From the NCBI GenBank assembly GCA_036397255.1, contig DASWJH010000053.1:12772-76771 (forward strand): a stretch of DNA of 64,000 nt, in the 5' to 3' direction. Of this stretch, positions 16,269 through 47,494 are shown piece by piece. This stretch comes from Nitrospiria bacterium (GTDB taxonomy: Bacteria > Nitrospirota > Nitrospiria > DASWJH01). The notes below the pieces were generated by a model that was given only the letters and a program-made list of their open reading frames with translations, was not told the DNA's origin and ran no database searches. The stretch's first letter is position 1, and each line of letters opens with the position of its first letter. Position numbers and translations under genes: made by a program.

Positions 16269-17630
16269 CTAACTGGCACTGGGCTTGAATTGGATGGCTT
16301 TTTTTAAAACGGTGTAGCCTATCACTCCCGATAAAATAGAGGCGATGAGAATTCCCATTTTGGCTTGTTTTAACATTTCTGGATCTAGAAAGGCCAATCC
16401 TGCAATAAAAAGGGACATGGTGAAGCCAATTCCTCCCAGAATGCTGACACCGTACAAGTGTGTCCATCCCACACCATTGGGCAGTTTGGCCCAGCCAAGC
16501 TTTACCGTTACCCAGGCGAAAAGAAATATGCCAGCCTGTTTCCCCACGAAAAGCCCAAGGATTAAGCCCATTATGATCGGTTCAGAAATTAAAACTCCCA
16601 ATTCCTGAAATGGGATTTCCGTTCCCGCATTTGCAAAAGCAAAAATGGGTAATATGACAAACGTAACCCAGGGGTGAAGGCCGTGTTCAATTCGCTGAAG
16701 GGGGGCTTCCACCCGGTGACAAGAAAATTCGATTTCCTGTATAACGGCTTGTTGCTCTTCCTCCCGTTCAAGAGGATCGTCCACGCGTTCTCGACTCAAA
16801 AAACGTTCCAACAAGTTTTGGATTCTTTTGGCAAACTCGTTTCCGGTTAAAACCGCCCGAGTCGGAATGGTCATGGCAAGCAAAATACCGGCAATGGTTG
16901 CATGAACACCGGATTTGAGAAACGCTAACCACAAGGCAATTCCAAGAATGACATAGACCATTGGTTTTCGAATACCGCCTTTGTTGCAGAGGAAAGAACC
17001 CAGGAGAATGAAAAACCCAGTCACCAAAGGAAGAAGAATAATTTTTTCGCTATAAAAGAGGGCAATCACCAAAACACCCCCCAAATCGTCTACAATGGCA
17101 AGAGCTGTTAAAAAGATGATTAGCCCCGGGGGAATCCCAGATCCTAATAAAGCCAGCGCTCCCAACGCAAAGGCGATATCCGTGGCCATGGGAATCGCCC
17201 ATCCCACCTCGGTGGCATTTCCGAAATTTAGGGTTAAATAGAAAAGAGCGGGAACCACCATTCCCCCCAAAGCACCGGCCATGGGAAGTATCACCCGTTG
17301 AAGGGAGGCTAACTCCCCCGCCAGAACCTCTCGCTTGATTTCTAACCCAACCAAAAAGAAAAAGATGGCCATGAGCCCATCATTGATCCAATGATGAAGG
17401 GTTTTATCGATAGAGAATTCCCCTATCCCGATTTTAAAGGAGATCTCCCATAAATGGTGATAGCCCGAAGAAAAAGGTGAGTTGGCGCATATCATAGCTA
17501 TTCCCGTGGCAACCATTAAAAGGATCCCTCCAATGGCCTCGATTTGGAAAAATTCTTGAAGGGGATGAATGATTAAGGTTTTATTCAGGTTTTTAGGGGG
17601 GTTGGTAGGTTTTGTCTTTCGGGTTTTCAT
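16269..17630 (-). CDS. nhaA: Na+/H+ antiporter NhaA
   Basis: NhaA-type TM architecture with the conserved ALAIVDDLG and GGIGFTMSLFI segments; 453 aa. Confidence 0.85.
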   Translation of the reverse strand: MKTRKTKPTNPPKNLNKTLIIHPLQEFFQIEAIGGILLMVATGIAMICANSPFSSGYHHLWEISFKIGIGEFSIDKTLHHWINDGLMAIFFFLVGLEIKREVLAGELASLQRVILPMAGALGGMVVPALFYLTLNFGNATEVGWAIPMATDIAFALGALALLGSGIPPGLIIFLTALAIVDDLGGVLVIALFYSEKIILLPLVTGFFILLGSFLCNKGGIRKPMVYVILGIALWLAFLKSGVHATIAGILLAMTIPTRAVLTGNEFAKRIQNLLERFLSRERVDDPLEREEEQQAVIQEIEFSCHRVEAPLQRIEHGLHPWVTFVILPIFAFANAGTEIPFQELGVLISEPIIMGLILGLFVGKQAGIFLFAWVTVKLGWAKLPNGVGWTHLYGVSILGGIGFTMSLFIAGLAFLDPEMLKQAKMGILIASILSGVIGYTVLKKAIQFKPSAS

Positions 17631-17640
17631 GCGCCGGTTC

Positions 17641-19419
17641 TTAAAACGGCCAAATTTTTGGGATCAATATGGTGGCCAGAATCCAAAACAGGATATTTAA
17701 AGGGGTTCCCACCCGGAGAAAATCTGAAAATTTGTACTGGCCCGGGCCATAGATGATGGTGTTGGTCTGATATCCCACAGGGGTCATAAAGCTTAAAGAT
17801 GCGGCAAAGGTGACAGCCATTAAAAATGGGCGTGGATTTAAAGACATGGATTCCGCGATTCCGATAGCAATGGGTGCGAGAAGGGCGGCGGTGGCATTAT
17901 TAGACATGACGTTGGTAAGGATCATCGTTAGAAAGAAAAGGGCAGACACCAGTGCTGTAGGCCCCAGTTCTCCAATACTGGAAACAAAAGCGTTTGAGAT
18001 AAACAAGGCGGCCTCTGTTTTTTCCAGGGCAATCCCCAGTGTTAATACCCCAGCCAGGAGAAAAATCACCTGCCATTGAATGGACTGATAGGCCTCCTCT
18101 AATGTGATGCAGCGGGTGAGGACCATCAAAATACATCCTAGAATGGCGCTGACCACAATGGGAAAAATATTTAATGAGGCAGTCAATACCACCGCTGTTA
18201 TAATCATCAGGGCCGGAAGGGTCTTGTGTTTTCGAAACTCGGGTAATCCGGGTGAGGAAACAATAACAAATGCGGGATCTTGTTTTAATTGATTCAGGTC
18301 TTCCCGTTTGAGTCTTAACAAGAGGACATCTCCTGCCTTCAGAGGCGCCACCTCAAGGTTTTCATGCATGACCTCCCCGCGATGCCGAATCGCAAGCACG
18401 GTTGCCCCAAAGTCGTGCCGAAACTGAGACTCAATTAGAGATTTTCCTTCCAATTTGGAATTGGGAGCGATGACCGCTTCCACAAGAGTGACTTCTTCTG
18501 ATTTTAGATCTTTATCCCATAATTTGGTGTCCGACTTTAGAAGAATCCCCTCCCTTTCTTGAAGTTTTTGCACCTTTTGAATATCACACCGGACCCGTAA
18601 AACATCGTTGGCTTGGAGAACCGTCCATAAGGATAGAGGCTGAAGGGAATTTCCATTCCGGTAAACATTGATAATGTCAATGTCCAGATCCTGGATCAAG
18701 GGGGAATCTTTTATCATTTTTCCTGCGGACTGACCTTCAGGGAGCAAAATGATTTCAGTGAGGTAATCGCCCATTTCAAAATTTTTGGTTAAATCTTGAG
18801 GTTTTCTCCGCTCCGGAATGAGGGGAACCCCTATGGCCACCATATAAACCAGACCCGCTCCAAACATGACTAATCCTAAGGTGGTAAACTCAAACATACC
18901 AAAAGGGGGTTGCCCATGTCGTTCCGCGATGGAATCCACCAGGATGTTGGTGGAGGTTCCGATTAAAGTGCAGACCCCCCCAAACATCGATGCAAATGAA
19001 AGAGGAATGAGCCATTTGGAAGGGCTGAGATTGTTGTCCCGAGCCATCCCTAAGACAATGGGTAAAAATATCGCAACAGCGGCGGTATTGTTAATGAAGG
19101 CTGAAATGGTTCCCACCCCGATCATCATGGCAATTAAGGCCATAAGGGTGTTTTTCTTTCCCACAGTTCCTAAGGCGGTTCCGATAAAATTAACAGAGCC
19201 GGTTTTGAATAACCCCGCACTCAGGATAAACATGGCAGCCACCGTTACGGTGGCTACATTACTAAACCCCGAAATTCCCTCTTCAGGTGAAATGATTCCG
19301 GTGATGAGCAAGGCTCCCATCATCATAAGGGCGACCAAGTCAACGGAAATCCACTCCGTGACGAATAAAACAATGGCCAATACAACCAGTCCAATCACCA
19401 AAACCATTTCAAAGGTCAT
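17641..19419 (-). CDS. SLC13/DASS-family anion permease with two central TrkA-C (RCK_C) domains
   Basis: 592 aa. N- and C-terminal permease halves flank soluble TrkA-C-like segments. The stop lies 10 nt upstream of the nhaA start. Confidence 0.8.
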
Positions 19420-19649: not shown

Positions 19650-19953
19650 TTGAGCGGTTTGTAAGAAATTAGGGTTTTTGTATTTGAAAACTGGAATCCC
19701 AGGTTTAACGGTCATTCCATTCCGAACCAAATGTTTTAGGTTTTCAATCCACTTGCTTTCATTCCATCAAACGGAATCCATCATTTAATTTCTTAAACAC
19801 TCGGGTCCTTTTGGCCAAAAAATAAAACACAGCTAACGCGCCGTTTGAAGGGATTTTATTCTTTCGGGTTTTATTCAAGTTTTCGGTCATTAGGGAAGGC
19901 CATTGGGTTATTAAGAACCCAGGATGTTTTTTATTAATTCCGGGAGGAAAACC

Positions 19954-21162
19954 ATGTCAGATTTTCACCAAACCGGTCCCATCGCAACGCTCCATCGACT
20001 CGGAAAACCTAATTTGGAGCGTTTGGAAATGGAATTAACCACTTTTTCAAAACAATGCCCTATCGGTCTGGTCCTTCCCTGTTTATTTTCGGAACTGCAG
20101 GGGGAAGCCCTTCCCGGAATTATCCGTGAGTTGAAAAATGTTCCCTACCTCCGGGAAATTGTGGTTTCTCTGGATGGGGCCGATGAAAAAGAGTTTGACC
20201 ATGGAAAGAACTTTTTTGGCGAACTGCCTCAAAAAGTAACCGTGATTTGGAACAACGGCCCCAGAATGCAAGCGCTATTAGAGCTTCTTAAAAACAACGA
20301 GGTTGAGATCGGACAGCCGGGGAAAGGAAGATCATGTTGGTTGTCCTATGGGTATATCCTTGCCCGAGGGGATTGCCAGGTCATTGCGCAACATGACTGT
20401 GATATTATCACTTACCAAAGAGAAATCTTGGCCCGTTTATGCTATCCGGCTGTGGCCCCTTCATTTCGATATGAATATTGTAAGGGTTATTATGCCCGGG
20501 TGACGGAACGCCTTCATGGCAGAGTGACCCGCCTCTTTATAACCCCCCTCATTCGTACGCTTCAAAAGTTCCTGGGTCAGATTCCTCTCCTAACTTTTTT
20601 AGACAGTTTTCGTTATCCTCTGTCAGGGGAATTCTCCATGGTGGTGGACTTGGCGCAAATTAATCGAGTCCCAGGGGACTGGGGTTTAGAAATTGGTACA
20701 CTGGCAGAAACCTATCGGAATTGTGCCCATCGGCGAATATGCCAAACCGAGTTGTGTGATGCTTATGAACATAAACACCAAATTCTTTCCCCGGAAGATC
20801 CCCAAAAGGGCCTCATGAAAATGTCAACGGATATTGCAAAATCCCTTTTCAGGAATTTGGCTATTGAGGGGGTGATCCTGGATGAAGGGCTATTTAAAAA
20901 CCTTGGCATTGCATACCTCCGATCGGCACAGGACACCATTAAAAAATACGAAGATGATGCGGCCATCAACAGTTTTTATTTTGACCGGCATGAAGAACGT
21001 TTGGCGGTGGAGGCTTTTACCCGAGCCATTAAATCGGCGGGGGAAGAGTATCTTGCGGACCCTGTTGGTGTTCCTTTAATTTCAAACTGGGTTCGACCCA
21101 CCTCGGCAATTCCAAACTTTTTCGAGAGACTCCTAAAGGCTGTCAAAAAAGATAATGGTTAA
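19954..21162 (+). CDS. Glucosyl-/mannosyl-3-phosphoglycerate synthase-like retaining glycosyltransferase (GT81/GpgS-MpgS family)
   Basis: Motifs align by eye to mycobacterial GpgS: IGLVLPCLFSE resembles VVLPALNEE, VVSLDGADEKE resembles VLDSGSTDDTE, and PGKGRSCW....DCDI resembles PGKGEALW....DSDL. The start is placed at ATG 19954 behind a GGGAGG RBS. The ORF track starts it 30 nt earlier. Confidence 0.7.
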   Translation: MSDFHQTGPIATLHRLGKPNLERLEMELTTFSKQCPIGLVLPCLFSELQGEALPGIIRELKNVPYLREIVVSLDGADEKEFDHGKNFFGELPQKVTVIWNNGPRMQALLELLKNNEVEIGQPGKGRSCWLSYGYILARGDCQVIAQHDCDIITYQREILARLCYPAVAPSFRYEYCKGYYARVTERLHGRVTRLFITPLIRTLQKFLGQIPLLTFLDSFRYPLSGEFSMVVDLAQINRVPGDWGLEIGTLAETYRNCAHRRICQTELCDAYEHKHQILSPEDPQKGLMKMSTDIAKSLFRNLAIEGVILDEGLFKNLGIAYLRSAQDTIKKYEDDAAINSFYFDRHEERLAVEAFTRAIKSAGEEYLADPVGVPLISNWVRPTSAIPNFFERLLKAVKKDNG

Positions 21163-21177
21163 GGGGCGTCGATAACC

Positions 21178-22461
21178 ATGGCAGATGGAGTTGTCCTCCG
21201 GGAGGATCTACAGGCAAAGATAAAAGAAATCGGTTCTGCTGACATTCTCATTGGTGTTCCCAGCTACAATAATTCGAAAACCATTGGACATGTTATTCAT
21301 GCTGTGAGTGCAGGAGTTGCAAAATATTTTCCGGAAGCCAAAGCGGTATTAATTAATTCTGATGGCGGATCCGTGGATGGAACCCCAAAAATTGCAGCCG
21401 ATTCCAGTTTTGATCTTCAAAGCATATTTGTTTCGCATCGACTCAATACCCTTCAGAGAATTTCAACCCCTTACCACGGTATACCCGGAAAGGGGAGCGC
21501 CTTCCGCTTGATCTTTGAAGTGGCTAAGGCCCTTGGAGTGAAAGCCTGCGCGGTGGTTGATTCTGATTTAAGGAGTATCACACCGGAATGGATTGAGTTA
21601 TTAATTAGTCCAATTCTACGGAAAGGATATGAATATGTGGCCCCTTATTATCTCAGACATAAATATGACGGAACCATCACCAATAGTATCATTTATCCAT
21701 TGAGCCGAGCACTGTATGGTAAACGGATTCGACAACCGATCGGAGGAGAATTTGGATTTACGGGGGATTTGGCTGAATATTTTCTCACGAAAGATGTTTG
21801 GGGTACAGATGTTGCGAGATTTGGAATCGATATTTGGATGACCACGACTGCCATTACCCGGGGAAGCAAAATCTGTCAGGTTTATTTAGGTGCAAAAATC
21901 CATGATCCAAAGGATCCCGGTGCTGACCTCTCCTCCATGTTGGTTCAGGTGATCGGCTCGGCCTTGAGTCTGATGGAGGAGCATGCGTCTCTTTGGAAAG
22001 GTGTCCATAGGTCCGAATCCGTACCCCTATTTGGTTTTCAGTATGATGTGGGTTTGGAACCTGTGAATGTGAGTGTGGAGCGAATGTTAAAAGCGTTTCA
22101 TCTGGGGTTAAATGAATTTTCACCCATGTGGGAGGGGGTTTTGTCTGAGGCGGTTTTGGGTGATTTGAAAAAATTGAAACCGAATGAATCCACTTTTCAT
22201 ATTCCCGATCCCGTTTGGGTCCGTGTGATTTACGATGTTGCTTTGGCTGCCCACCGACAAACCATGCCCAGGGAACATTTACTTAAATCCTTGACCCCCC
22301 TTTATTTGGGAAGGGTTGCCTCCTTTATCTTAGAAATTCAAAGGAGTCACCACCGAGAGGTTGAAGAAAAAATTGAAAGTTTGTGCCAGGCGTTTGAAAA
22401 AGATAAAGCCTATTTGGTGAACCAATGGGAACCTACCAATGATTTTGGAGAGAAAACATGA
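21178..22461 (+). CDS. GT-A fold glycosyltransferase, GpgS-like paralog (copy A of the duplicated module)
   Basis: ILIGVPSYNN...LINSDGGSVDGT and YHGIPGKGSAF...VVDSDL motifs. Strongly similar along its whole length to the 56123..57391 product. Confidence 0.7.
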   Translation: MADGVVLREDLQAKIKEIGSADILIGVPSYNNSKTIGHVIHAVSAGVAKYFPEAKAVLINSDGGSVDGTPKIAADSSFDLQSIFVSHRLNTLQRISTPYHGIPGKGSAFRLIFEVAKALGVKACAVVDSDLRSITPEWIELLISPILRKGYEYVAPYYLRHKYDGTITNSIIYPLSRALYGKRIRQPIGGEFGFTGDLAEYFLTKDVWGTDVARFGIDIWMTTTAITRGSKICQVYLGAKIHDPKDPGADLSSMLVQVIGSALSLMEEHASLWKGVHRSESVPLFGFQYDVGLEPVNVSVERMLKAFHLGLNEFSPMWEGVLSEAVLGDLKKLKPNESTFHIPDPVWVRVIYDVALAAHRQTMPREHLLKSLTPLYLGRVASFILEIQRSHHREVEEKIESLCQAFEKDKAYLVNQWEPTNDFGEKT

Positions 22462-23162
22462 AAGACCTTTGGCAAACGGCCTTCCTAGGGCCCATGGAAG
22501 AATTTTTTAAACAGGTTGGGGCTTTTATTCCTCATCTATTGGTCATGTTAATCATCATCGCAATCGGTTTCGGGGTTGCTTGGGGAATCCAAACAGTTAT
22601 TTCCCGGTTATTAGAAGTCATTCGTTTTGACCGGTTTAGTTTCCGATTGGGTTTTTCCCAAGCCCTGAGTAAGGGGGGAATTAAGGAACACCCCTCTCAT
22701 CTCATCAGCCGCTTAGTGTATTGGGTCATTTTCCTGGCTTTCGTGATGTTGGGTTTGGATGCTTTGAACCTCAATGCCATAAATCAGTTGGTGTCAAAAA
22801 CCTTGTCCTACCTTCCCCATCTTTTGGTGGCCTTGATTATTTTATCGGTTGGGATCATTTTAGGTAACTTTTTTGGCCAGGCCATTTTAATTGCTGCGGT
22901 AAATGCCCAGATTTCTCAGGCGAGGTTTTTGGCCCTTGGGGTCCGGTTAGGGATTATTTTATTTTCCCTGGCAATGGCCTTGGTTCAATTAGGAATTGCA
23001 ACGACTATCATAGTTGCGGCTTTTTCTATTTCTTTTGGCGGGGTGGTTTTGGCTTTGGCCATTGCCTTTGGACTCGGGGCCAAAGAGACGGCTAAGGCGA
23101 TCATTGAAAAGCGGATTAAAAAAGAGGAAGAACCCAAAGAAGAAGAACTTTCACATCTTTAA
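22458..23162 (+). CDS. Polytopic membrane protein of the MscS N-terminal 'conserved TM helix' type that lacks the MscS beta-domain; lysine/glutamate-rich C-terminal tail (copy A)
   Basis: 234 aa with about 5 TM helices. The start overlaps the stop of the upstream glycosyltransferase gene in an ATGA arrangement. Paralogous to 57388..58092, and its N-terminal region is paralogous to the MscS-like gene at 60215. The tail ...AFGLGAKETAKAIIEKRIKKEEEPKEEELSHL is conserved in the paralog. Confidence 0.65.
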   Translation: MKDLWQTAFLGPMEEFFKQVGAFIPHLLVMLIIIAIGFGVAWGIQTVISRLLEVIRFDRFSFRLGFSQALSKGGIKEHPSHLISRLVYWVIFLAFVMLGLDALNLNAINQLVSKTLSYLPHLLVALIILSVGIILGNFFGQAILIAAVNAQISQARFLALGVRLGIILFSLAMALVQLGIATTIIVAAFSISFGGVVLALAIAFGLGAKETAKAIIEKRIKKEEEPKEEELSHL

Positions 23163-23165
23163 CGT

Positions 23166-24698
23166 TTATCCTCTCCCATAGCATTTGGTCATTTCAGATA
23201 GTTTTTGAATTAATGGGCGGTTTAAACTGCCCGGTTTTAGTCTCCATTCCCAATTTCCTTTTGAAGTAGCGGGGCGGTTCATTCGCCCTTCATCCCCTAG
23301 GCCTAATATATCCTGCATGGGGAATATGGTTGTATTGGCAACGGACATCATCAATAACCGGATCAATTCCCAGTGGATTTCCTTCCTCGGTGTTCCTCCC
23401 CGAAACCCTATATACTGAAGCGTCTTCTGACGTTCCTCTCGAATTTCCTCCGGTTTGCGGGTCGAATAATCTACTTTTCCAAAAAGCCAGCTCATTAAGG
23501 TATCATTATCATGGGTTCCTGTATAAGCAACACAATTTTTTACAAAATGGGAAGGTTTGTAAAAATCGGCAAGGGGGTCATTCCCAAACGCAAATTGCAG
23601 AATTCTCATTCCCGGAAGTTCAAACCGATCCCTGAGTTCATGAACCTCAGCGGTTATGACTCCCAGATCCTCCGCAATAAAGGGAAGGTATGGGAAATGT
23701 TTTAAAAGGGCATTGAAAAAACGCTCTCCCGGTCCTTTCATCCATTGTCCGTTTACCGCCGTTTTTTCCCCCGCAGGCACCTCCCAATAATCAATGAATC
23801 CTTTGAAATGGTCTAAACGGACCACTTCAAATAATGAAAAGTTGTGTCTGACCCGCTGAACCCACCAATCATATCCTCTTTTCTCCAAAATATCCCACCG
23901 ATAAATGGGATTATTCCATAATTGGCCCGTGTCGCTAAAGAAATCAGGAGGGATTCCTGCTACGGCTAGAGGTTTCTTTTGTGAGTCGAGTTTGAACACC
24001 TCTGGATGGGACCAAACATCCGCGCTATGGTATTGTACATAAATGGGGAGGTCTCCGATTATCTGAATATTTCTTTTATTGGCGTATTGCCGAAGGGCAC
24101 TCCATTGCATGAAAAAAAGATATTGGATCCATTTTTCCTTTTCGATTTCATTATGTAGTTTTTCCCGCCAACTTTTTAAAGCGGATACCCGACGGTCCCT
24201 CATTTCAGGAGGCCATTGATGCAACACCTTCCTGCCCGTTTGGGAAGCAAAGGCAGCGAAAAACGCAAAAGGTTCCAGCCAAATGCTTTGTTCCTCACAA
24301 AATCTTAAAAACTCATAATCGGTTTTCAACCGGCTATAAAATTTCCAGAAGGTTTTTTCCAGTATTTTATTTTTATATTCGGTAACGGAAAAGTAATCCA
24401 CGGCATGATTTGGAAAATGGGGAATGGGTTGGATATCCGTTTGGGAAATAAACCCATCTTTAACCAATTGTTGTGGGCTGATCATCAGAGGGTTTCCCGC
24501 AAACGCCGAGTGGCTGCTGTACGGGGAACTTCCAAAAGCGGTTGATGTTGGGTTTAATGGAAGGATTTGCCAGTAACTCTGCTTGGATTGTGCTAAAAAG
24601 TCGATGAATTGGAATGCGCTGGGTCCCAGATCTCCGATTCCAAAAGGGGTGGGGAGGGAGGTAATATGGAGCAGAATACCGCTTGTCCTCCGCATCAT
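23166..24698 (-). CDS. malQ: 4-alpha-glucanotransferase (amylomaltase, GH77)
   Basis: N-terminus MMRRTSGILLHITSLPTPFGIGDLG is typical of MalQ. The start is set at the ATG at 24698, which overlaps the treY stop in an ATGA arrangement. The ORF-track start at 24851 adds 51 non-conserved residues. Confidence 0.85.
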   Translation of the reverse strand: MMRRTSGILLHITSLPTPFGIGDLGPSAFQFIDFLAQSKQSYWQILPLNPTSTAFGSSPYSSHSAFAGNPLMISPQQLVKDGFISQTDIQPIPHFPNHAVDYFSVTEYKNKILEKTFWKFYSRLKTDYEFLRFCEEQSIWLEPFAFFAAFASQTGRKVLHQWPPEMRDRRVSALKSWREKLHNEIEKEKWIQYLFFMQWSALRQYANKRNIQIIGDLPIYVQYHSADVWSHPEVFKLDSQKKPLAVAGIPPDFFSDTGQLWNNPIYRWDILEKRGYDWWVQRVRHNFSLFEVVRLDHFKGFIDYWEVPAGEKTAVNGQWMKGPGERFFNALLKHFPYLPFIAEDLGVITAEVHELRDRFELPGMRILQFAFGNDPLADFYKPSHFVKNCVAYTGTHDNDTLMSWLFGKVDYSTRKPEEIREERQKTLQYIGFRGGTPRKEIHWELIRLLMMSVANTTIFPMQDILGLGDEGRMNRPATSKGNWEWRLKPGSLNRPLIQKLSEMTKCYGRG

Positions 24699-27457
24699 TT
24701 CTTTTCCTCCCCAACCAAAAGGGAGACTGGAAAATATTTTAGAATATCGCAGACCTTGAGGTGTTTCCCTGTTCGGTGTTGTTGACCTGTCATTGCATCC
24801 GCCCATTGAGAAGGAGCTCCGGCAGGAAGCACCAGGGTGGTATTTCCCCAAAGGCTATCTCCATGGGGTAGCTCTCCTTCCTGGATTAATCCCGCCAAAA
24901 AACGCGGGACGATGGTTAGGGTCCAAACCGACCCCTGATTTCGGGCAAAAGCGATCACCTGCTCCTTTAAATGGCCCTTTGGCTCAATGGGATGATAGGT
25001 CCCAAATGTAAAACACTCCCTGAGAGTTTTTCTCATTTGAAGCGCTTGATAGATGGTATACAATTTTATTCCCCCATCAGACCGTGTGGACCAAAGTTCC
25101 TTGAGGCATTTCAGTCGATCTTCTTGGGTAGGGTGAAGCATTTCTGAAAGGCGGTGAGTTCGAGTTTCATAATCAACGGAACGCCGGTTATCTGGATCCA
25201 CTAGGCTCAAATCCCAAAGTTCTGTTCCCTGGTAAAAATCCGGAATTCCAGGGGAGGTGATTTTAATCAGGGTTTGGGATAAAGAATTGAGCATTCCAAA
25301 AAAAGCGACTTTCTTTTGAAACGGTTTAAAATCTTCGAAGAAGGATTTGGACCCCACGATTCTTTCCACAAATTCGGTGAGGGCTTTCTCATAGGTTGTT
25401 TGGGGATCGATCCAATTGGTGTAAACCTTCCCCTCCCGCCCTGCCTTGATCATATAGTTTTTAACCCGCTCGGTCCATTGGAGGTCCAAACCTTCCTGGA
25501 AAGGGTAGGTACCCATCATCGTTTGATACAGAAAATATTCTTCATTTTTTCCAGGGACCATTTTCCCTTTTACTTTTAATTTTTTGTTCCGATTGAGTTG
25601 GTGCCAATAGAAAATCTTTTTATTCCATTCATCTGGGATTTCAGAAAGAACATTAATTCTTGCTCGGACATCTTCTCCTCTTTTGGTATCATGGGTGGCA
25701 GAAGCGCTCATGGTATGGGGCCATTGGGTTTCCCGGGACCGGTTAAACTGATGCCATTCCTTCATGGAGGTTCCGAAGTGGGCTGGAACTCCCCCCACTT
25801 CATTGAGAGAAAGAAGGCGGTTGTATACATAAAGGGTGGTGTCCTCATGCCCTTTCGCCATTAAAGGGCCCGTATACTGCTGCAAACGCATTCCAAAATT
25901 TACCCTTTGTTCTTTGTTTTCCTTTTCAAAGCCTTTTCGTTTTTTTCCATCCAGCACCTGGTGTAAAAGGGTCAGATCCTTTTTAAGTTTCGGGTTTCTC
26001 TGTTTGGCTGCCTCAATGGCCTGTTTAATATAAACCCGATCGGTTGGATGAACCCCTTTCTGATCACCATAGGTTCGATAGACCGGAAAGCAGGCAATGA
26101 ACTCAGTGATGGTTTTTTTCAAGTTTTTGAGGGGAACTGTTTTTTGAAAAGGATGGCCTTTTAAAATATTCTGGAACACCCGTGAGAGGTTTTCCATATC
26201 TCCGTTCATGTCAGACCGCATAATGAGGTGCTTGTTTTGATAAAGCAGGTCAACCGGAGTCTTTTTCTGACGGGTGAATTTTTGGTATAAACCTTGAAAA
26301 GGTTCTGCATTTTTGCCCATGCAAAAAAGACCATTTAAAACGTTTAAAAATTCATAGCCGGTGGTCCCTTGAATGGGCCAGGTTTTGGGAAGTTTTTCTT
26401 TCCGTTCCAAGATTTTTTCAACCACCAAATACCTTTCCCCTATCTTTTTCCTTAATTGCATCAAATAGGCGGCGGGGTCAAAGAGGCCATCAATGTGATC
26501 GACCCTGATTCCGGAAAATTTCCCTTCCCGGCAAAGTCTAAAAATTAACCCGTGGCTATAGTTAAAAACCTCTTCATATTCCACCCTCAATGAAATCAAC
26601 TCATTCACGGCAAAAAACCGTCGGAAATTGATTTTCTGGGTGGCGCGTTTCCAAAAATCCAGTTTGAAGATTTGTTTAGACATCAGCTGATCCAAAAAAT
26701 GCTTTTGGTTTTTTGCATTGATCCAGTCTACCGTTTTATCTAAGAACTCATGAATCTCTGAATGGGTTTGGTAGAGTTTCCAAAGTTGGGATTTCAAATC
26801 TTGGATTTTATCCTTTTGGAGAGGAATATGTTTCATTGCCTCCAGGATTTTCAAAAGATAATGGGGTTCTGGATTTCCTTCCCCCAATTTCTTTTTCATC
26901 ATGGAGAGTGCTTTTTGTAACACCTGATTATATGAATCAAAATATAAAGGAAAACACAATGAATAGTAATTAATGTTAAATCCATTTTCGCTATAACCGA
27001 TGCGAATTTCGCCCGCTCTCAGGGCTTCCGGGTAGGGTTTTCCCAAAAAAGGGCAAAGAAGGCGACCGGAGAGATCTTGGTTAGGGTGATCCCAATCAAT
27101 ATCCAGGAATAAAAGATAAGGGGAGTCTTTTCCCGTTTCAAAAAGATCCATGAGGATGGGATTATTTCCATCAAAAGCCATATGATTGGGAACAATGTCT
27201 TGGATCCAACCCATTTGATTTTCATGTATGGTTTGAATCAGGCGTTCAAAGTCCTTTTCCGTTCCTAATTCGGGATTGATTTTCCTCGGATCCACCACAT
27301 CATACCCGTGTTGACTTCCCTTCCGGGCCTCAAAAATGGGGGAGGCATACAGATGGGAAATACCTAAATCTCCTAGATAAGGGACCAATTTTTTTGCGGA
27401 TTCAAATCCGAATTCAGGGGTGAATTGAATGCGATAGGTGGATATAGGGATTTCCAT
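24695..27457 (-). CDS. treY: Malto-oligosyltrehalose synthase (GH13)
   Basis: 920 aa. N-terminal TYRIQF...GISHLYASPIFEA and VPNHMA match the TreY/GH13 fold. Confidence 0.85.
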   Translation of the reverse strand: MEIPISTYRIQFTPEFGFESAKKLVPYLGDLGISHLYASPIFEARKGSQHGYDVVDPRKINPELGTEKDFERLIQTIHENQMGWIQDIVPNHMAFDGNNPILMDLFETGKDSPYLLFLDIDWDHPNQDLSGRLLCPFLGKPYPEALRAGEIRIGYSENGFNINYYSLCFPLYFDSYNQVLQKALSMMKKKLGEGNPEPHYLLKILEAMKHIPLQKDKIQDLKSQLWKLYQTHSEIHEFLDKTVDWINAKNQKHFLDQLMSKQIFKLDFWKRATQKINFRRFFAVNELISLRVEYEEVFNYSHGLIFRLCREGKFSGIRVDHIDGLFDPAAYLMQLRKKIGERYLVVEKILERKEKLPKTWPIQGTTGYEFLNVLNGLFCMGKNAEPFQGLYQKFTRQKKTPVDLLYQNKHLIMRSDMNGDMENLSRVFQNILKGHPFQKTVPLKNLKKTITEFIACFPVYRTYGDQKGVHPTDRVYIKQAIEAAKQRNPKLKKDLTLLHQVLDGKKRKGFEKENKEQRVNFGMRLQQYTGPLMAKGHEDTTLYVYNRLLSLNEVGGVPAHFGTSMKEWHQFNRSRETQWPHTMSASATHDTKRGEDVRARINVLSEIPDEWNKKIFYWHQLNRNKKLKVKGKMVPGKNEEYFLYQTMMGTYPFQEGLDLQWTERVKNYMIKAGREGKVYTNWIDPQTTYEKALTEFVERIVGSKSFFEDFKPFQKKVAFFGMLNSLSQTLIKITSPGIPDFYQGTELWDLSLVDPDNRRSVDYETRTHRLSEMLHPTQEDRLKCLKELWSTRSDGGIKLYTIYQALQMRKTLRECFTFGTYHPIEPKGHLKEQVIAFARNQGSVWTLTIVPRFLAGLIQEGELPHGDSLWGNTTLVLPAGAPSQWADAMTGQQHRTGKHLKVCDILKYFPVSLLVGEEKK

Positions 27458-27506
27458 TGCTCTGTATAAGGGTCCTTTCCCCTAAGTGGGTTGGGTGGTG
27501 GGAGGC

Positions 27507-29312
27507 TTAAATTTTTAAGAGAAAGACGGCAACACTTTCGCCCCGGATGGTTTTGGGAAGGAGGCCCCCAGGCCCGTCCCACCGTTTATCTGCTGAATCT
27601 AAATTCTTTTCCCATTCTCCTTCTGGGGCGGGTGGAAGTTCCAAATTACGGTCCAATGGGTCTAAATTAAAGACCAATAAAACGTGGGATCGGTCTGACC
27701 ACCGGTGGACATATAGTGTTTGTTGAGAGTCGTCTCCCCAAACCTCCATTTGGTCCTTATTCAAATTTCCTAGGGCGGGAACCTGTTTTCTTGAATTCAA
27801 AAGAGCTTGGTAGAACTCTAACATAATTTTATGGTGTCCTTTTTCCCGTTTATCCCAATGAATTTTGGATTTTAGAAAAGTTTCCATTCCCTGGGGGTCG
27901 GGAGAGTCTTCCTTCCAACCGAAGGCTTGGAATTCCTCTTTTCTTCCTTTTCGAACGGCGGCGATGAGGTCAGTATCCGAATGGCTAACAAAATACAAAA
28001 ATGGAGAATTTTCTGCGTATTCCTCTCCCATAAAAAGCATGGGTATATAAGGGGACAATAAAACGACTCCCGCGGCCAGTTTGAGGCTTTCAAAGGAAAC
28101 CAATTCAGATAAACGCTTTCCATCCAGACGGTTTCCAATTTGATCGTGGTTTTGGGAATAAACCACGAACTGATCGGCTGGTCTGTCCTTGGAGGAATTT
28201 CCATGTCTGCGTTTTCGATAGGGTGAAAATTGGCCGCTGTATATAAAGCCATTCCGGTAGGCTGTCCTCAACTGCTCACTGGTTCCGAAATCCATATAAT
28301 AACCTTGGTTTTCGTGGGTGAGGAGGGTATGAAGGGCGTGATGGAAATCATCACACCATTGGGAGTGGATTCCAAATCCACCCAGGTCACGGGGTTTAAT
28401 AATTTTCACATCGTTGAGATCACTTTCGGCAATTAGAAAATGTCTCCTCCCGGTGTGTTGAACGTAATCATCGGACTTCTCTGACAGCTCCTTCAAAAAA
28501 GGGGTGGCCCCCTCATCTACAATGGCGTGAATGGCATCCAGGCGGAGGGCATCTATATGAAAGTCCCGAAACCAATAAAGTGCATTTTCAATGAAGAAAT
28601 TGTGGACCCCGTCGCTGTAGGCGTCATCAAAATTCAGGGCTGCTCCCCAGGGGGTTTTGTATTTCCCAGTAAAGTAGGGTCCAAATTGACCCAGATAGTT
28701 TCCCTCGGGCCCAAGGTGGTTGTAGACCACATCTAAAATTACCGAAATGCCTCGATGGTGGCAAGCATTGACGAGTTTTTTCAGTCCGTCTGGGCCCCCA
28801 TAAGAATTTTGGACACCAAAGAGATAAACACCGTCGTATCCCCAATTTCGATCACCTGGAAACTGCGCAACGGGCATAATTTCAATGGTGTTGATTCCTA
28901 TTTTTTGAAGGTCACCCAATCGAGGAATCATAGCCTCAAAGGTTCCTTCCGGGGTAAAGGTTCCCACATGCAGTTCATACATGATCATTTCCGAAAGGGG
29001 AATTCCCCTCCACGCATCATCGGACCAGGAAAACGAATGATGGTCTATAACCTGGGAAGGACCATGGACCCCTTGAGGCTGGAAATGGGATGCGGGATCG
29101 GGGAGACTTTTTTCCTCCCCCAGTTTAAACAGATAATGGTCTCCAGGGGATATCCCTTCATATTCTAGGTGCCAATATCCCTCCTTTAAGGGGGTAAAGG
29201 GAATTACCTTTCCCGGATTGGAAAGGATTTCCAACTGGACCTCTTTCCGCAAAGGTGCCCACACGGTAAATTTGCAACGCCGATTTCCTTTATAATTGGC
29301 GCCAATCTCCAC
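27507..29312 (-). CDS. treZ: Malto-oligosyltrehalose trehalohydrolase (GH13)
   Basis: 601 aa. CBM48-like N-terminus, then DVVYNHLGPEGNY and GFRLDAIHAI GH13 catalytic regions. Confidence 0.85.
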   Translation of the reverse strand: MEIGANYKGNRRCKFTVWAPLRKEVQLEILSNPGKVIPFTPLKEGYWHLEYEGISPGDHYLFKLGEEKSLPDPASHFQPQGVHGPSQVIDHHSFSWSDDAWRGIPLSEMIMYELHVGTFTPEGTFEAMIPRLGDLQKIGINTIEIMPVAQFPGDRNWGYDGVYLFGVQNSYGGPDGLKKLVNACHHRGISVILDVVYNHLGPEGNYLGQFGPYFTGKYKTPWGAALNFDDAYSDGVHNFFIENALYWFRDFHIDALRLDAIHAIVDEGATPFLKELSEKSDDYVQHTGRRHFLIAESDLNDVKIIKPRDLGGFGIHSQWCDDFHHALHTLLTHENQGYYMDFGTSEQLRTAYRNGFIYSGQFSPYRKRRHGNSSKDRPADQFVVYSQNHDQIGNRLDGKRLSELVSFESLKLAAGVVLLSPYIPMLFMGEEYAENSPFLYFVSHSDTDLIAAVRKGRKEEFQAFGWKEDSPDPQGMETFLKSKIHWDKREKGHHKIMLEFYQALLNSRKQVPALGNLNKDQMEVWGDDSQQTLYVHRWSDRSHVLLVFNLDPLDRNLELPPAPEGEWEKNLDSADKRWDGPGGLLPKTIRGESVAVFLLKI

Positions 29313-29314
29313 CC

Positions 29315-31459
29315 TTAAACCCCCTTTTCTCTTCTTCCGGTTGTAAGATGGAAAACAGCCAAGGATCTGCCTTGAAGGGAATAGGTTCGCCCACCTCGAG
29401 CCATTCCACCCATATCGTGAAGATCTTCAAAGGTGGTATCCAACCTCAAGCTCCACCGGGTTCCTTTTTTGTGTGCGGGCAATACAAAAGGGATGCTTTC
29501 ATGGTGGGCGTTTAAAAGAATAAGGAGGGTTTCCCCAAATATAGGGTTTCCCTTTTTATCCACCTCTCCCATGGCATCCCCCGCCAGCCGCATACCCAAA
29601 CACCGGACAAAGCCAGCATTCCATTCCTCATCATTCATTTCCCGCCCCGTTGGGCCAAACCAGGATATGTCTTTAATTTCGGAACCACGAATATGCCGTC
29701 CCTGGAAAAATTTTCTGCGCCTTAAAACCGGGTTGGCTTTTAAAAATTGAATGACTTTTTTGGTAAACTGAAAGAAATCTTTCTGTTCTTTGGTTAACTC
29801 CCACTGATACCAGCTAATTTCATTATCCTGGCAATAGGCATTATTATTTCCCTGTTGGGTTCGCCCAATTTCATCTCCTCCACTGATCATGGGGGCCCCC
29901 TGGCTAAACAGCAAGGTGGCCATCAGGTTTCTTTTTTGTTTTTCCCTGAGGGCTTTAATTTCGGGATCATCCGTGGGTCCCTCCGTACCACAATTCCAGC
30001 TAACATTATCATCCGTTCCATCCCGATTTTCTTCGCCGTTGGCCTCATTATGTTTGTGGTTATAACTGACCAAATCATGAAGGGTAAACCCATCATGTGC
30101 AGTAATAAAATTAATGCTGGCATGTGGCTTTCGGCCGCTTCCCCCGTATAGATCGGAGCTGCCCGACAACCGCGTAGCCATTTCCGCTACCTGGCGACCA
30201 TCTCCTTTCCAAAAGCTGCGAACTGCATCACGGTATTTCCCATTCCACTCAGTCCACAGAACGGGAAAGTTTCCTACCTGATAGCCCCCTTCTCCCAGGT
30301 CCCAAGGTTCCGCAATGAGTTTAACCTGGGAAATAATCGGATCCTGCTGAATAATATCAAAAAAGGCTCCCAGACGATCGACCTCATGTAATTCCCGGGC
30401 CAATGTGCTGGCCAAATCGAATCGAAATCCGTCAACATGCATTTCCAGAACCCAGTACCGCAAACTGTCCATAATGAGTTGAAGCACTTGAGGTGTAGTC
30501 ATGTTGAGGGTGTTACCACACCCGGTGTAGTCCATATAGAATCTTGAATTGTCATTGACAAGCCGGTAATAGGAGGCATTATCAATTCCCCGAAGAGAAA
30601 GAGTGGGCCCCAGGTGATTTCCTTCTGCGGTATGGTTATAGACCACATCCAAAATCACCTCAATTCCCGCGGTATGTAAGGTCCGAACCATCATTTTAAA
30701 CTCGTCAGCGACTTCCATGGTTCCGGAACCATAACGGTTAACCGGTGCAAGGAAAGCCAGAGAGTTATAACCCCAGTAGTTGCTTAAACCCTGTTTAACC
30801 AGGTAGTGATCATTCACGTAGTGATGAACAGGAAGAAGCTCAACCGCAGTGATTCCTAATTGGGTGAGGTGCTGAATAATGGGCTCTGAGGCCAGTCCCG
30901 CATAGGTTCCCCGCAATTCTGGGGGAACATCGGGATGTTTCATGGTTAACCCTCTCACATGGGTTTCGTAAATGATGGTCTCATGCCATGGGGTTTTAGG
31001 GGGTCGATCGTTCCCCCAGGTAAACGCCGGGTCTACTACGGAACAAAGAGGGGCAAATGGGGCGTTGTCCCGGTCATCTCTTGTGAGATCTTCCTTGGGA
31101 TCCCCTGTTTTGTAACCAAACATGGATTCATCCCAATGGATTCTTCTTGCGATTGCTTTTGCATAGGGGTCTACCAAAACCTTTGAAGGGTTAAACCGGT
31201 GCCCTTGAGAGGGGTCATAGGGGCCGTCTACCCGATACCCATAAATCCATCCAGGGCGTGCTTCAGGAAGGTAGACATGCCACACACGGTTGGTTTGCTC
31301 CATCATTTTAATTCGATGGGCTTCCTTTTTGTCTTCAATAGAATTAAAAATACATAGCTCTACCTGGGTCGCATTTTCGGAGAATAGGGCAAAATTCACC
31401 CCTCGGCCGTCCCATGTTGCGCCTAAGGGATAAGGGTTTCCCGGTATGGTTCTCATCAA
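29315..31459 (-). CDS. glgX: Glycogen debranching enzyme (isoamylase-type, GH13)
   Basis: 714 aa. [18 protein letters not shown]-terminus, [11 protein letters not shown] and GFRFDLA motifs. Confidence 0.85.
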
Positions 31460-31522
31460 AAGGTTCCTTTCGGTTTTTTGCGTTGCAAAAAGGCTGGTGG
31501 GCTCACCCTTTTTGTTCCCCCC

Positions 31523-33499
31523 TTATTTGGAGGAAACATCGGCTTCATATTTAAAAAAGCCAATGCTCAAGGGAGGTAAAACCAAGGGCAAGGAATAAAA
31601 GTGGCCATGAGAGGGAATGGGTGTGGCCTCCAACCCCCCAAAGTTTCCTTGGCCGCTTCCCCAATATTGCTTGGCATCGCTGTTGAGCATTTCTTTCCAA
31701 AATCCAGCCATGGGGACACCAATGCGATAGTTGTTCCGGGGTACGGGGGTAAAATTGCACACCACTAGAATCCGATCTTTAGGGTTTTTCCCTTTTCGCA
31801 GAAAACTGATGATCGAATTCTCCCAATCCTGGCAGTCTACCCACTCAAACCCTTCGCCCTGAAAATCCATTTCATGGAGGGCTGCCTCGTCTTTGTAGAG
31901 GTGGTTTAAATCGCGGACCCACTTTAGAATTCCCTGGTGACTGGAATATTCCAATAGATGCCAGTCCAGGCTGGATTCATGATACCATTCATCCCATTGA
32001 CCGAATTCTCCCCCCATCATTAAAAGTTTCTTGCCAGGGTGGGCAAACATATAACCAAATAACAATCTTAAATTCGCAAACCGCTGCCAATCGTCCCCGG
32101 GCATTTTCCCAAGAATGGACCCTTTGCCATAGACGATTTCGTCATGGGACAAAGGCAGGACAAAATTTTCGGAGAAGGCATAACAGAGACTAAAGGTGAG
32201 CTGATTGTGGTGAAATTTACGGAACACTGAATCCTTGGAGAAATAATCCAATGTATCATGCATCCATCCCATGTTCCATTTGATCCCAAATCCCAGCCCC
32301 CCCACATAAGTGGGCCGGGAGACCATGGGCCACGCGGTGGACTCTTCGGCAAAGGTTTGAACATCCGGAAATTTCTCATAAATGGCTTCATTCATTTTTC
32401 TGAGAAACCCAATGGCTTCAATATTTTCACGTCCACCATATTCATTGGGAATCCAATCCCCGCCTTGGCGGGCGTAATCCAGGTACAGCATGGAAGCCAC
32501 TGCATCTACTCGAATACCATCAATATGGTATTTTTCCAGCCAAAATAGAGCGCTACTAATTAAAAAGGCCCTCACTTCATTGCGGCCATAGTTAAAAATA
32601 TAACTTTTCCAATCCGGATGGAACCCTTTACGGGGGTCGGCATGTTCAAAGAGATGGGTCCCATCAAAATAAACCAATCCATGTTCATCCGAGGGAAAAT
32701 GGGAAGGGACCCAATCCAGGATGAGGCCAATGCCGTTTTGATGCAGGTAATCCACCAAATACATAAAGTCCTGGGGGGTTCCATACCGGCGGGTAGGGGC
32801 GAAATAACCAACCGTTTGATAACCCCAGGATCCATAAAAGGGATGTTCGGTGAGGGGTAAAAATTCAACGTGTGTGAAACCCATGTGTTTAACATATTCC
32901 GCCAAAGAGGGGGCTATTTCCCGATAGGTCAAATAACGGTTTCCTTCTTCGGGCATTCTTTTCCAGGACCCCAGGTGAACTTCATAGATGGACATGGGCG
33001 CACTGAGCTTGTTCACCTCCTGGCGGGAAGACATCCATTGGTGATCTTTCCATTGATACTCAATATCACATACCACGGAACCGGTTTTAGGGGGTTCTTC
33101 CCACCCAAATCCATAGGGGTCTCCCTTATCGACCTGATATCCGTTTTGTTTGGAAACAATGTGGTATTTATATATCTCCCCCGGGCCAATGCTTCCAATA
33201 AACCCTTCCCAAATTCCGGACCCGTCTTTTCGAACGTTCAAGGGATGGGATTGGGGATTCCAGCCGTTAAAATTCCCAATGATGTAAACTTTTTCCGCAT
33301 TGGGCGCCCAAACAGAGAAATAAACACCCTCTATTTCGTCCACCACCATGGGGTGTGACCCAAATTGGTCATATAAGTGGTTGTGGGTTCCCTCTTTAAA
33401 AAGGTAAATATCATATTCCGTAAACCGGCTGACGGGTTGAATCAGCTCAGGCTTAGGGTTGGATTTTTTTCTTGGTGATGTTGGTTGATCTTTACCCAT
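31523..33499 (-). CDS. glgB: 1,4-alpha-glucan branching enzyme (GH13)
   Basis: 658 aa. GWMHDTL and [14 protein letters not shown] motifs are typical of GlgB. Confidence 0.85.
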
Positions 33500-33525
33500 G
33501 TTTCATCCTCTTAATTTAGGAAGGT

Positions 33526-36921: not shown

Positions 36922-36930
36922 ATCCCTTTC

Positions 36931-45055: not shown

Positions 45056-45059
45056 GGGG

Positions 45060-45728
45060 CTATTCCTTTATTGTATAGCCTACCCCCCGAATGGTTTTGA
45101 TCAGAGGATGGGCTTCCCCTTTATCGATTTTTCCCCGGAGATAGGCCACATAGACATCAATGACATTGGTTCCCGTGTCAAAATCAATATTCCACACATG
45201 TTCCACTATCATGCTCCGTGTCAGTACCCTTCCTGGGTTTCGGATCAAATATTCCATTAAGGCATATTCTTTGTTGGTTAAATCGATTTTTCGGCTTCCC
45301 CGAAATACCTCCCGAGTGGTAGGGTCCACTTTAAGGTCGGCCACTTGGAGCAGGGGCCCATGCCCCGGTTTCGCCCGCCTTAGCAAAACCCGAACCCTGG
45401 CCAAAAACTCTTCAATGGAAAAAGGTTTAGTCAGGTAGTCATCTCCTCCCGAATCCAAGGTGGCCACTTTATCCGGAACGGCATCCTTGGCGGTTAAAAC
45501 CAGAATGGGAGTGGTATTTCCTTTTCTTCGGAGTTCCTTTAGGATCGTGACCCCTAATTTTTTCGGAAGCATCAAGTCCAAAACAATCAGGTCATAGTCA
45601 TAGGCTTCTGCCATGTCCTGACCTTCCTCTCCATCCAAGGCATTGTCTACGGCGTACCGTTCCTCTTCAAGGGCCTGGCGGATAAAATTCCCAACTTTTT
45701 TTTCATCTTCAATGACTAAAATACGCAT
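45060..45728 (-). CDS. OmpR-family response regulator
   Basis: Receiver domain (ILVIEDE...DLIVLDLMLP) plus a winged-helix trans_reg_C domain (LTNKEYALMEYL...GVGYTI). 222 aa. Confidence 0.85.
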   Translation of the reverse strand: MRILVIEDEKKVGNFIRQALEEERYAVDNALDGEEGQDMAEAYDYDLIVLDLMLPKKLGVTILKELRRKGNTTPILVLTAKDAVPDKVATLDSGGDDYLTKPFSIEEFLARVRVLLRRAKPGHGPLLQVADLKVDPTTREVFRGSRKIDLTNKEYALMEYLIRNPGRVLTRSMIVEHVWNIDFDTGTNVIDVYVAYLRGKIDKGEAHPLIKTIRGVGYTIKE

Positions 45729-47479: not shown

Positions 47480-47494
47480 GACAGGAGGAAAGGT

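Follow-up and report, generated by a model that had tools for sequence, protein, structure and literature searches.

What does a bacterium gain from joining a glycosyltransferase gene, by a four-nucleotide overlap, to the gene for a membrane protein that looks like a mechanosensitive channel without its cytoplasmic part? The question is raised by a 64,000-nucleotide stretch (the window) from a Nitrospiria bacterium (assembly GCA_036397255.1, contig DASWJH010000053.1, positions 12,772 to 76,771), in which this two-gene module occurs twice, as copies A and B. Below, GT is the glycosyltransferase and TMh its neighbour, the TM-helix membrane protein; GT-A and GT-B are the two proteins of the window, and the fold of the former name is always given as the GT-A fold. 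The pair is kept together across phyla, also where the enzyme has lost its catalytic motifs. Our answer, which we hold to be about evenly balanced between right and wrong, is that the two proteins form a complex in the membrane, through which a tension-sensitive pore or sensor would be coupled to the metabolism of glucosylglycerate and of alpha-glucan/trehalose; both the complex and its gating are inferred.

Two copies of one module

A preliminary description, made from the sequence alone, had placed two collinear copies at 21178..23162 and 56123..58092, and all the open reading frames are indeed found there. Copy A consists of GT-A (21178..22461, forward strand, 427 aa), by Pfam, fold and motifs a two-domain glycosyltransferase of the MGS/Ggs type with a GT-A fold, and TMh-A (22458..23162, forward, 234 aa), an MscS-type membrane protein with five transmembrane (TM) helices, two matches to PF05552 and no vestibule. 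Copy B consists of GT-B (56123..57391, forward, 422 aa), whose metal site is altered relative to its paralogue GT-A, and TMh-B (57388..58092, forward, 234 aa), a paralogue of TMh-A with a tail ending EEEVSHF. The stop codon of GT and the start codon of TMh overlap in an ATGA, read directly at 22458..22461 and at 57388..57391 (both forward), so that the overlap and the 234-aa partner described for both copies are real. A GGAG-type ribosome-binding site can be read 6-8 nt upstream of each overlap, and the overlap suggests translational coupling of GT-A with TMh-A. Identity is 50% between GT-A and GT-B, which align without gaps over 410 aa and across the motifs too (E = 1e-156), and 64% between TMh-A and TMh-B (E = 2e-95). 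The copies are true paralogous two-gene modules.

The neighbours of both copies are those of the preliminary description, as judged by Pfam and NCBIfam: a GpgS-like gene before copy A, which abuts a GlgE cluster, and a GlgP-like gene before copy B. The first gene of operon A (19924..21162, forward) encodes a GpgS-like glycosyltransferase of the Methanococcoides/Persephonella type. It matches NCBIfam NF040724 (GpgS_Meth) over its full length (E = 1.7e-104; 350 bits, with a cutoff of 700) and is 26% identical to GT-A over the core of the GT-A fold, with PGKG, DxD and GGEF motifs in common; 15 nt separate the two genes at the junction as read. Most related loci likewise have a GpgS-like gene beside the pair. 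Convergent with operon A is a cluster of genes for MalQ, TreY, TreZ, GlgX, GlgB, a TreS-Mak fusion and GlgE (23166..38922, reverse; Pfam). The MalQ stop codon lies only 4 nt from the end of TMh-A, leaving neither room for nor a remnant of a downstream beta-domain. The GlgP-like alpha-glucan phosphorylase (53487..56012, forward; DUF3417 plus Phosphorylase, PF11897 and PF00343) ends 110 nt upstream of GT-B, again as read at the junction. Promoter and terminator scans around both copies gave counts no higher than shuffled controls. An Rfam scan of the whole window found no family at gathering score, and the 500 nt upstream of operon A accordingly show no sign of a riboswitch. The 64 kb contain no homologue of an MpgP/GpgP-type phosphatase, a TreT-like GT4 or a glycerate kinase, all of them companions of the pair at most related loci; operon A is made up of GpgS-like, GT and TMh genes only.

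Conservation of the pair

Is the adjacency more than a local accident? One genome per GTDB species was scanned with a TMh alignment, giving 56 loci, 52 of them with a close TMh and 49 of these with upstream DNA. GT lies directly upstream of TMh on the same strand in 46 of the 49 informative loci, in at least seven phyla. The loci come from Nitrospirota (including the cultured Nitrospira moscoviensis), Thermodesulfobacteriota/Syntrophia, Methylomirabilota, Tectomicrobia, Acidobacteriota, Actinomycetota, Gallionella and others. In two of the remaining loci (L042 and L044) a paralogous GpgS-like enzyme, rather than GT, is directly upstream of TMh, and in the third (L025), on a short contig, it is a ROK-like kinase. 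A scan of metagenome contigs with a diverse GT alignment gave the view from the other side: TMh follows GT immediately in all 73 of the 80 loci that have downstream DNA. The adjacency is conserved across phyla in related genomes and is no accident of one lineage, the outcome on which the preliminary description had staked its case.

The spacing from stop to start is -8 to +37 nt in most of the extracted species loci, with an overlap of -4 or -8 in 19. The order of GT and TMh is constant, while the GpgS-like gene and the gene for the MpgP/GpgP-family phosphatase shift around the pair; the commonest architecture is GpgS-like, GT, TMh, GpgP. Strict conservation of gene order is a known sign of physical interaction, as reportedly set out by Dandekar et al. 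(1998). The distance matrices of GT and TMh correlate at r = 0.68, a value reached by none of 2000 permutations. Three other surveyed genomes hold two modules each (L006/L007, L035/L042 and L037/L044).

The two Nitrospiraceae metagenome-assembled genomes with exceptional loci (L042:4684-7744 and L044:288-3263) carry GpgS-like, TMh and GpgP genes there without a Ggs-type GT. The TMh tail at these loci ends in DDLRH, without a final hydrophobic residue, and both genomes also hold a degenerate GT-TMh pair in a GlgE operon (L035 and L037).

An MscS membrane domain without its vestibule

PF05552 matches twice in TMh-A (44.2 bits) and twice in TMh-B (35.7 bits), well clear of a cutoff of 22, and PF00924 (MS_channel_2nd, the beta-domain) matches neither protein at E <= 0.1. 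The beta-domain is missing, as had been proposed, and TMh does not belong to some unrelated, characterised family. The proposal that TMh consists only of N-terminal repeats did not survive, since the alignments span the whole membrane domain of MscS, including TM3a. Residues 114-206 of TMh-A align to residues 24-115 of Escherichia coli MscS, that is TM1-TM2-TM3a (phmmer, E = 2e-3), and the last three helices of TMh are the equivalents of these. The best Foldseek matches are likewise the MscS TM domain (about 90 aa, 31-33% identity, rmsd 2.9-3.8 A), at E-values that are not significant. In the AF2 model of TMh-A (pLDDT 78.8), five long helices are followed by a cytoplasmic helix up to residue 224 and then by a disordered tail. 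The two halves of the protein are an internal duplication (E = 1e-6).

Residues G194, G195, A203 and G205 are invariant and make up the Gly/Ala-rich packing pattern of the TM3a-like helix; this pattern, an LIAAVNAQ motif and a periplasmic GIA turn are the strongly conserved parts of TMh, and hydrophobic positions line up with the MscS gate residues L105 and L109. As the pore-lining helix is kept and the protein ends at about the point at which a beta-domain would begin, TMh is vestibule-less and not pore-less. The term 'channel-less', used of it before, is misleading: what is missing is the cytoplasmic vestibule alone. Homology with MscS and the way positive charges are distributed both point to a cytoplasmic C-terminus. 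Compared with E. coli MscS, TMh shares TM1-TM2-TM3a with the Gly/Ala-rich pore helix but has neither the beta-domain nor the alpha/beta vestibule domain; it has two extra N-terminal helices from the duplicated PF05552 unit, and a K/E-rich helix with a hydrophobic-x-His-hydrophobic tail replaces TM3b and the cytoplasmic cage.

A comparator outside the module, the MscS-type channel at 60215..61042 (forward), has PF05552 twice and PF00924 at residues 211-266 (E = 5.6e-7), confirming that a real MscS with the same N-terminal repeats lies close by. Residues 24-209 of TMh-A are collinear with its residues 25-208 (E = 2e-15), which is the whole membrane domain; the alignment stops at FGLGAK, just upstream of the beta-domain match, and TMh runs for 25 residues further. 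This comparator is itself minimal, with 275 aa comprising a 5-TM PF05552-type domain and a beta-domain only. No third (alpha/beta) MscS domain was detected in it, and the 3' end of its gene overlaps the next gene by 17 nt. That TMh is a truncated MscS pseudogene was considered and ruled out by its fixed length, about 233-238 aa throughout the family, and by its conserved terminus in more than 100 loci.

TMh is allied to TM-only proteins built of PF05552 repeats (NF033912 'msc', including tandem forms of ~500-680 aa), which have the same module and likewise no beta-domain; we know of no characterised member among them. TMh-A and TMh-B reach 78.6 and 72.6 bits against NF033912, below its cutoff of 100, and match model positions 167-365 of 365.

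The tail of TMh

What sets TMh apart from these relatives is its end. The K/E-rich tails of TMh-A and TMh-B read KKEEEPKEEELSHL and KKEGEPKEEEVSHF, just as first quoted, and the last ten residues of TMh-A, EPKEEELSHL (residues 225-234; 23130..23159, forward), which are disordered in the AF2 model, are a proposed docking peptide. GT-linked TMh proteins end, after the K/E-rich helix, in acidic residues and then hydrophobic-x-His-hydrophobic-COOH. His233 of TMh-A is invariant in the alignments, and 99 of 101 non-identical GT-linked TMh proteins have the penultimate His; the two exceptions among the pairs (L045 and L048) accompany the most degenerate GTs. The His tail is absent from four of four distant TMh homologues without GT and from real MscS. 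The ~228-aa homologues without GT in Chloroflexota and CPR, unlike the GT-linked TMh, lack the tail.

An exhaustive search with the TMh profile gave 7,632 representatives (50% clustering) at E <= 1e-3, and the tail was counted in the best 150 of these, of which 79 are of ~234 aa and 66 of ~440-680 aa. It terminates 63 of the 79 shorter proteins. The long class, one chimera (P0380) apart, is made up of TM-only tandem proteins that have no beta-domain; in this class only the chimera has the tail, and the 65 genuine long relatives, with 4-6 repeats, do not (0/65).

The tandem PF05552 class, exemplified by P0309, P0318 and P0331 (~490-680 aa; 4-6 tandem PF05552-type modules, no beta-domain, no His tail), represents a branch of the MscS superfamily that is TM-only and uncharacterised. 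The chimera P0380 (441 aa, from a metagenome) joins residues 1-219 of a GT with intact motifs to a TMh lacking ~25 N-terminal residues. It skips the C-terminal domain of GT; a rare fusion is one way to read it, an internal deletion or a fault of assembly are others. It is the only natural GT::TMh fusion found, and as it is single, truncated and possibly an artefact of assembly or deletion, it is not taken as Rosetta-stone evidence.

The fold and family of GT

A single-sequence search of the PDB with GT-A returned nothing useful; profile and fold searches were needed. The AF2 model of GT-A (pLDDT 86, pTM 0.87) has as its best Foldseek match the mannosylglycerate synthase (MGS) of Rhodothermus marinus (2BO7/2Y4J), over both domains (416 columns, TM 0.66/0.74, E = 6.5e-15); the matches to these entries range over 413-426 columns, with TM-scores of 0.61-0.67 (query) and 0.69-0.74 (target) and a probability of 1.00. 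GT and R. marinus MGS (GT78; PDB 2BO4/2BO7/2Y4J) have in common a GT-A-fold domain and a C-terminal helical domain but only 16-18% sequence identity, and the donor and acceptor of GT are a prediction. MGS acts by one-step transfer to a non-phosphorylated glycerate-type acceptor, and no membrane partner has, to our knowledge, been reported for it. Pfam recognizes PF21969 (MGS_GT) and PF00535 in GT-A; the gathering score of PF21969, 27 bits, is passed by GT-A at 30.1 and failed by GT-B at 21.3.

GpgS (GT81; Mycobacterium tuberculosis and M. hassiacum) has a homologous GT-A-fold domain but not the C-terminal domain of GT, and the fold match to mycobacterial GpgS is limited to that first domain (~270-290 columns, Foldseek E ~1e-10). 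The family profile reaches mycobacterial GpgS at E = 2e-5, with PGKG, DSD, QP(I/L)GGE and the metal-binding His in register. The NCBIfam equivalog cutoffs for GpgS are not approached, GT-A scoring 56 bits against 262 for NF010496 and 17 against 700 for NF040724, and GT-B 35 against 262 for NF010496. Membership of GT81/GpgS is ruled out by these scores, and a separate GpgS-like gene already stands upstream at 19924. The preliminary label 'GT81/GpgS-like' is right about the homology of the GT-A-fold domain and wrong about the nearest relative over both domains, the GT78 enzyme MGS. From its sequence and predicted fold GT appears better described as an MGS/Ggs-like one-step glycerate glycosyltransferase than as GpgS/GT81.

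A one-step enzyme for glucosylglycerate is on record: Ggs of Persephonella marina (EC 2.4.1.268; Fernandes et al. 2007, cited in PMC3736172) makes it from ADP-glucose and D-glycerate, according to PMC3736172. Many homologues 60-72% identical to GT-A carry the JGI product name 'glucosylglycerate synthase'. The Persephonella operon reportedly also holds GpgS and GpgP. Of this arrangement the window has the GpgS-like gene directly upstream of GT, and related loci have the order GpgS-like, GT, TMh, GpgP. The literature searched has no mention of a membrane partner of Persephonella Ggs.

The motifs of GT-A are all intact: PGKGS, Asp128-Ser129-Asp130, RQPIGGEF and His242. The second of these, the DXD metal-binding motif (21559..21567, forward), aligns to FIDSDL of mycobacterial GpgS, and D-[SA]-D is kept at this position in 22 of 22 intact-motif GT orthologues. 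Glucan priming was also considered as a function of GT, with nothing specific found in its favour.

Catalytic decay beside a constant partner

Two kinds of operon house the pair. In the glucosylglycerate operons its partners are a GpgS-like enzyme and a HAD phosphatase of the MpgP/GpgP family (TIGR02461, ~250 bits); most of the 80 metagenome loci carry one or both. The Nitrospira operons, that of N. moscoviensis among them, run TreS, TreT-like GT4, GT, TMh, GlgE, Mak, GlgB. A motif table was compiled for 39 GT/TMh pairs from the species genomes and this window. GT-A and the GTs of glucosylglycerate contexts retain PSYNN, NSDGGSxDG, PYHGIPGKGS, VVDSDLRSI, RQPIGGDFGF and the metal His. The GTs of GlgE operons have DAN, DPA, EGQ or DGN at the DXD position, have lost PGKGS and the glutamate of GGE, and mostly have Q, V or M at the metal-His position. 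Altogether DXD, PGKG or the metal His is altered in 17 of the 39 pairs, and all three are gone in most Nitrospira members from GlgE operons.

Mean identities within the intact-motif group are 71% for the GT-A-fold domain, 52% for the C-terminal domain of GT and 47% for TMh; within the degenerate-motif group they are 45%, 54% and 56%. In the degenerate group the catalytic domain has been freed from constraint, unlike the helical domain and TMh. Of the columns that are invariant in every GT clade, many fall in the C-terminal domain.

Copy B is a case of partial decay. GT-B has DPH for DSD (Asp-Pro-His at 56489..56497, forward, from the alignment with GT-A and the motif table), Gln for His242 and PGRGT for PGKGS, and both predicted metal ligands are lost. 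The PGKG...DSDL-type motifs first ascribed to both copies are present in GT-A; in GT-B the DSD is DPH. Among 5.8 billion proteins GT-B has no homologue closer than ~52%, an identical fragment aside, and TMh-A and TMh-B are mutually nearest relatives among the 39 pairs. Because GT-B lacks a close orthologue and TMh-B is nearest to TMh-A, copy B is taken to be a lineage-specific duplicate of the whole module in which only the enzyme has evolved fast.

Further genes are met within these operons. Between GpgP and GT in operons of the Thermodesulfobacteriota type there is a gene for a conserved 387-aa protein (e.g. L005:3556-4716; also in L006, L008, L011, L016, L024, L051 and ~18 metagenome loci). 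It has no Pfam or NCBIfam match, motifs like the DND and ED of the GT-A fold are visible, and it may be a further uncharacterised glycosyltransferase, making for example a di-glycosyl glycerate. Directly upstream of GT-TMh in Gallionella (L043:2476-4650) and in several metagenome loci, one fused gene encodes a GpgP-type HAD phosphatase together with a glycerate kinase (DUF4147 plus MOFRL) and ties the module to the supply or recycling of glycerate. TreS and maltokinase are fused in the window (33526..36921, reverse, 1131 aa) and are separate genes in the Nitrospira loci, with GT-TMh between them.

A proposed membrane complex and its rivals

A physical complex of GT and TMh is the simplest account of the invariant order, the coupling, the partner-specific tail, the retention of pseudo-enzymes and the shift of constraint to the C-terminal domain of GT. 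TMh would form an MscS-like ring in the inner membrane with the N-terminus outside and the C-terminus inside, and its cytoplasmic tail would recruit GT, probably via the conserved C-terminal helical domain of the latter. The docked GT would then stand at the place of the vestibule in an ordinary MscS. In operon A such a complex would link a tension-sensitive pore or sensor with the making of glucosylglycerate; the solute could then be let out on osmotic downshift, tension could control the enzyme and feed back on synthesis, or both could happen. A catalytically decayed GT, as in the TreS/GlgE operons of Nitrospira and in part in copy B beside GlgP, may be kept as a non-catalytic ligand sensor or structural subunit, linking the same membrane device to the balance of alpha-glucan and trehalose. 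The osmotically gated synthesis or export unit first put forward remains a plausible proposal. The features that matter most lay beyond the reach of that description: the His tail, the catalytic decay of GT with the partner kept and the precedent of MscS genes in ectoine clusters (PMC13342039).

Several points weigh against such a complex. The window has no GpgP phosphatase, and the likeness of GT to Persephonella Ggs rests on JGI product names. Conservation of the C-terminal domain of GT could stem from folding or oligomerisation alone, and the Mantel correlation of the two proteins is also expected from simple co-inheritance. Mutual information between the tail and GT columns (101 pairs) was diffuse and dominated by phylogeny, and no docking site was called. 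Persephonella Ggs is reportedly active as a soluble recombinant enzyme (Fernandes et al. 2007), and thus a membrane partner would be unneeded for catalysis. Truncation of the cytoplasmic domain destabilises the E. coli MscS channel, and a ring without a vestibule may therefore not conduct.

A more specific form of the complex, which we consider less likely than not, is a 'split' mechanosensitive device, in which an MscS-type ring would have a separately encoded cytoplasmic domain of glycosyltransferase fold docked through the tail. Either tension would control the enzyme, or the ligand state of GT (NDP-sugar, glycerate or glucosylglycerate) would control the pore. In Nitrospira GT would now be purely a pseudo-enzyme subunit, coupling the osmotic state to the trehalose-glucan switch of TreS and GlgE.

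The main rival does without any contact. TMh could be an independent safety valve, a small MscS-type release channel co-expressed with solute synthesis that neither binds nor regulates GT. The kept pore helix speaks for this, as do the many genes of ion and osmotic homeostasis in the window, and the place of TMh within glucosylglycerate operons would follow directly. There is also a precedent in the ectoine biosynthetic clusters, likewise compatible-solute operons with an MscS-related membrane protein, where MscS-type channel genes are read as release valves on osmotic downshock (Czech et al. 2022, cited in PMC13342039). Against this precedent, TMh has no vestibule, is near-obligately associated with one enzyme, is coupled to it and persists with a pseudo-enzyme. 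The channels of the ectoine clusters are complete and their association is facultative. A valve acting alone leaves unexplained why GT is retained directly upstream after the loss of its catalytic motifs, and in operons for other sugars; why the order of GT and TMh alone is invariant when the other operon genes are mobile; and why the conserved tail is specific to the GT-linked subfamily. A complete MscS-type channel is, moreover, already present at 60215. On balance we find an independent valve doubtful.

Somewhat further from the evidence, and in our view unlikely, is a membrane anchor or scaffold, with TMh having lost channel activity and mechanosensing and only tethering GT or pseudo-GT, so that enzymes of glucosylglycerate, trehalose and alpha-glucan metabolism would be organised close to the membrane. 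It would account for the tail motif and the invariant pairing, and for the persistence of the pair with pseudo-GTs in GlgE operons, and the size of the TM-only PF05552 family without a beta-domain implies some role other than that of classical MscS. Five helices are more than a simple tether needs, however, and a tether has no need of the strongly conserved Gly/Ala pattern of the TM3a-like helix, the LIAAVNAQ motif and the periplasmic GIA turn; these pathways are soluble ones with no known membrane-bound substrate.

A synthase-exporter, in which the glycoside or oligosaccharide made by GT would pass through the TMh pore to become an osmoregulated periplasmic or extracellular sugar, is suggested by the translational coupling of GT to a pore-like membrane protein and by the alpha-glucan genes close by. 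We consider it highly improbable: GT is a soluble retaining enzyme of MGS type and GT-A fold without membrane or translocation elements, its operon partners produce a cytoplasmic solute, the pair outlasts the catalytic decay of GT, and a pore of MscS type has neither selectivity nor an energy source. A meaningless adjacency, through hitch-hiking or an annotation artefact such as a truncated MscS gene, could point to the odd truncated chimera P0380 and to the different upstream gene at L025, and is effectively refuted by the neighbourhood surveys (46/49 and 73/73 loci across phyla), the fixed length of ~233-238 aa with its conserved C-terminal motif and the absence of room or remnant for a beta-domain downstream of TMh-A.

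Novelty and significance

That compatible-solute operons may contain an MscS-related gene is already known. What appears to be new is the specific device: an MscS domain without a vestibule that has a docking-type tail and is obligately paired with a GT of the MGS/Ggs type able to decay to a pseudo-enzyme. The preliminary description knew of no described system like the pair, and the literature searched describes none: it contains no mention of PF05552, of glucosylglycerate in Nitrospira or of a pair of Ggs and a membrane protein, and a search for MscS without its cytoplasmic domain matched only papers on mesenchymal stem cells. The genome paper of Nitrospira marina discusses glgE and trehalose, and not the GT-TMh pair.

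Osmosensing at the protein level and the adjustment of compatible solutes in bacteria are largely unresolved, and the known links are mostly transcriptional or transporter-related. The GT-TMh pair is a candidate for a direct coupling of membrane mechanics to metabolism, conserved across Nitrospirota, Thermodesulfobacteriota, Methylomirabilota, Acidobacteriota and others. It puts part of the uncharacterised TM-only PF05552 family (7,632 representatives) into a functional context for the first time and shows that the membrane domain of MscS can persist in evolution without the cytoplasmic cage. It also places a likely pseudo-glycosyltransferase inside the alpha-glucan (GlgE) operon of Nitrospira, a genus of nitrifiers of worldwide importance that includes the cultured N. 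moscoviensis. If the split device were true, it would be the first tension-gated metabolic enzyme or the first enzyme-gated channel of the MscS type.

Other genes around the module

Genes for ion and osmotic homeostasis flank both copies (16269..19419, reverse; 50386..53130 and 58188..58952, forward). Besides MscS and MgtE, the products are NhaA, TerC, a P-type cation ATPase and a permease of the CitMHS/SLC13 type that has two TrkA_C domains. A 309-aa protein (58971..59900, reverse) with an N-terminus like a signal peptide and no Pfam match is encoded between the genes for TerC and the MscS-type channel. MgtE is split or duplicated: a 285-aa protein with MgtE_N and CBS domains only and no membrane domain (61026..61883, forward) is directly followed by a complete MgtE (MgtE_N, CBS and MgtE; 61896..63206, forward). 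The shorter gene is another case in the window of separately encoded soluble domains of a transport protein. Acetate kinase and phosphoketolase (XFP) genes are adjacent at 46286..49870 (forward), and upstream of them lies a divergent two-component system comprising a HAMP histidine kinase and an OmpR-type regulator (43643..45728, reverse).

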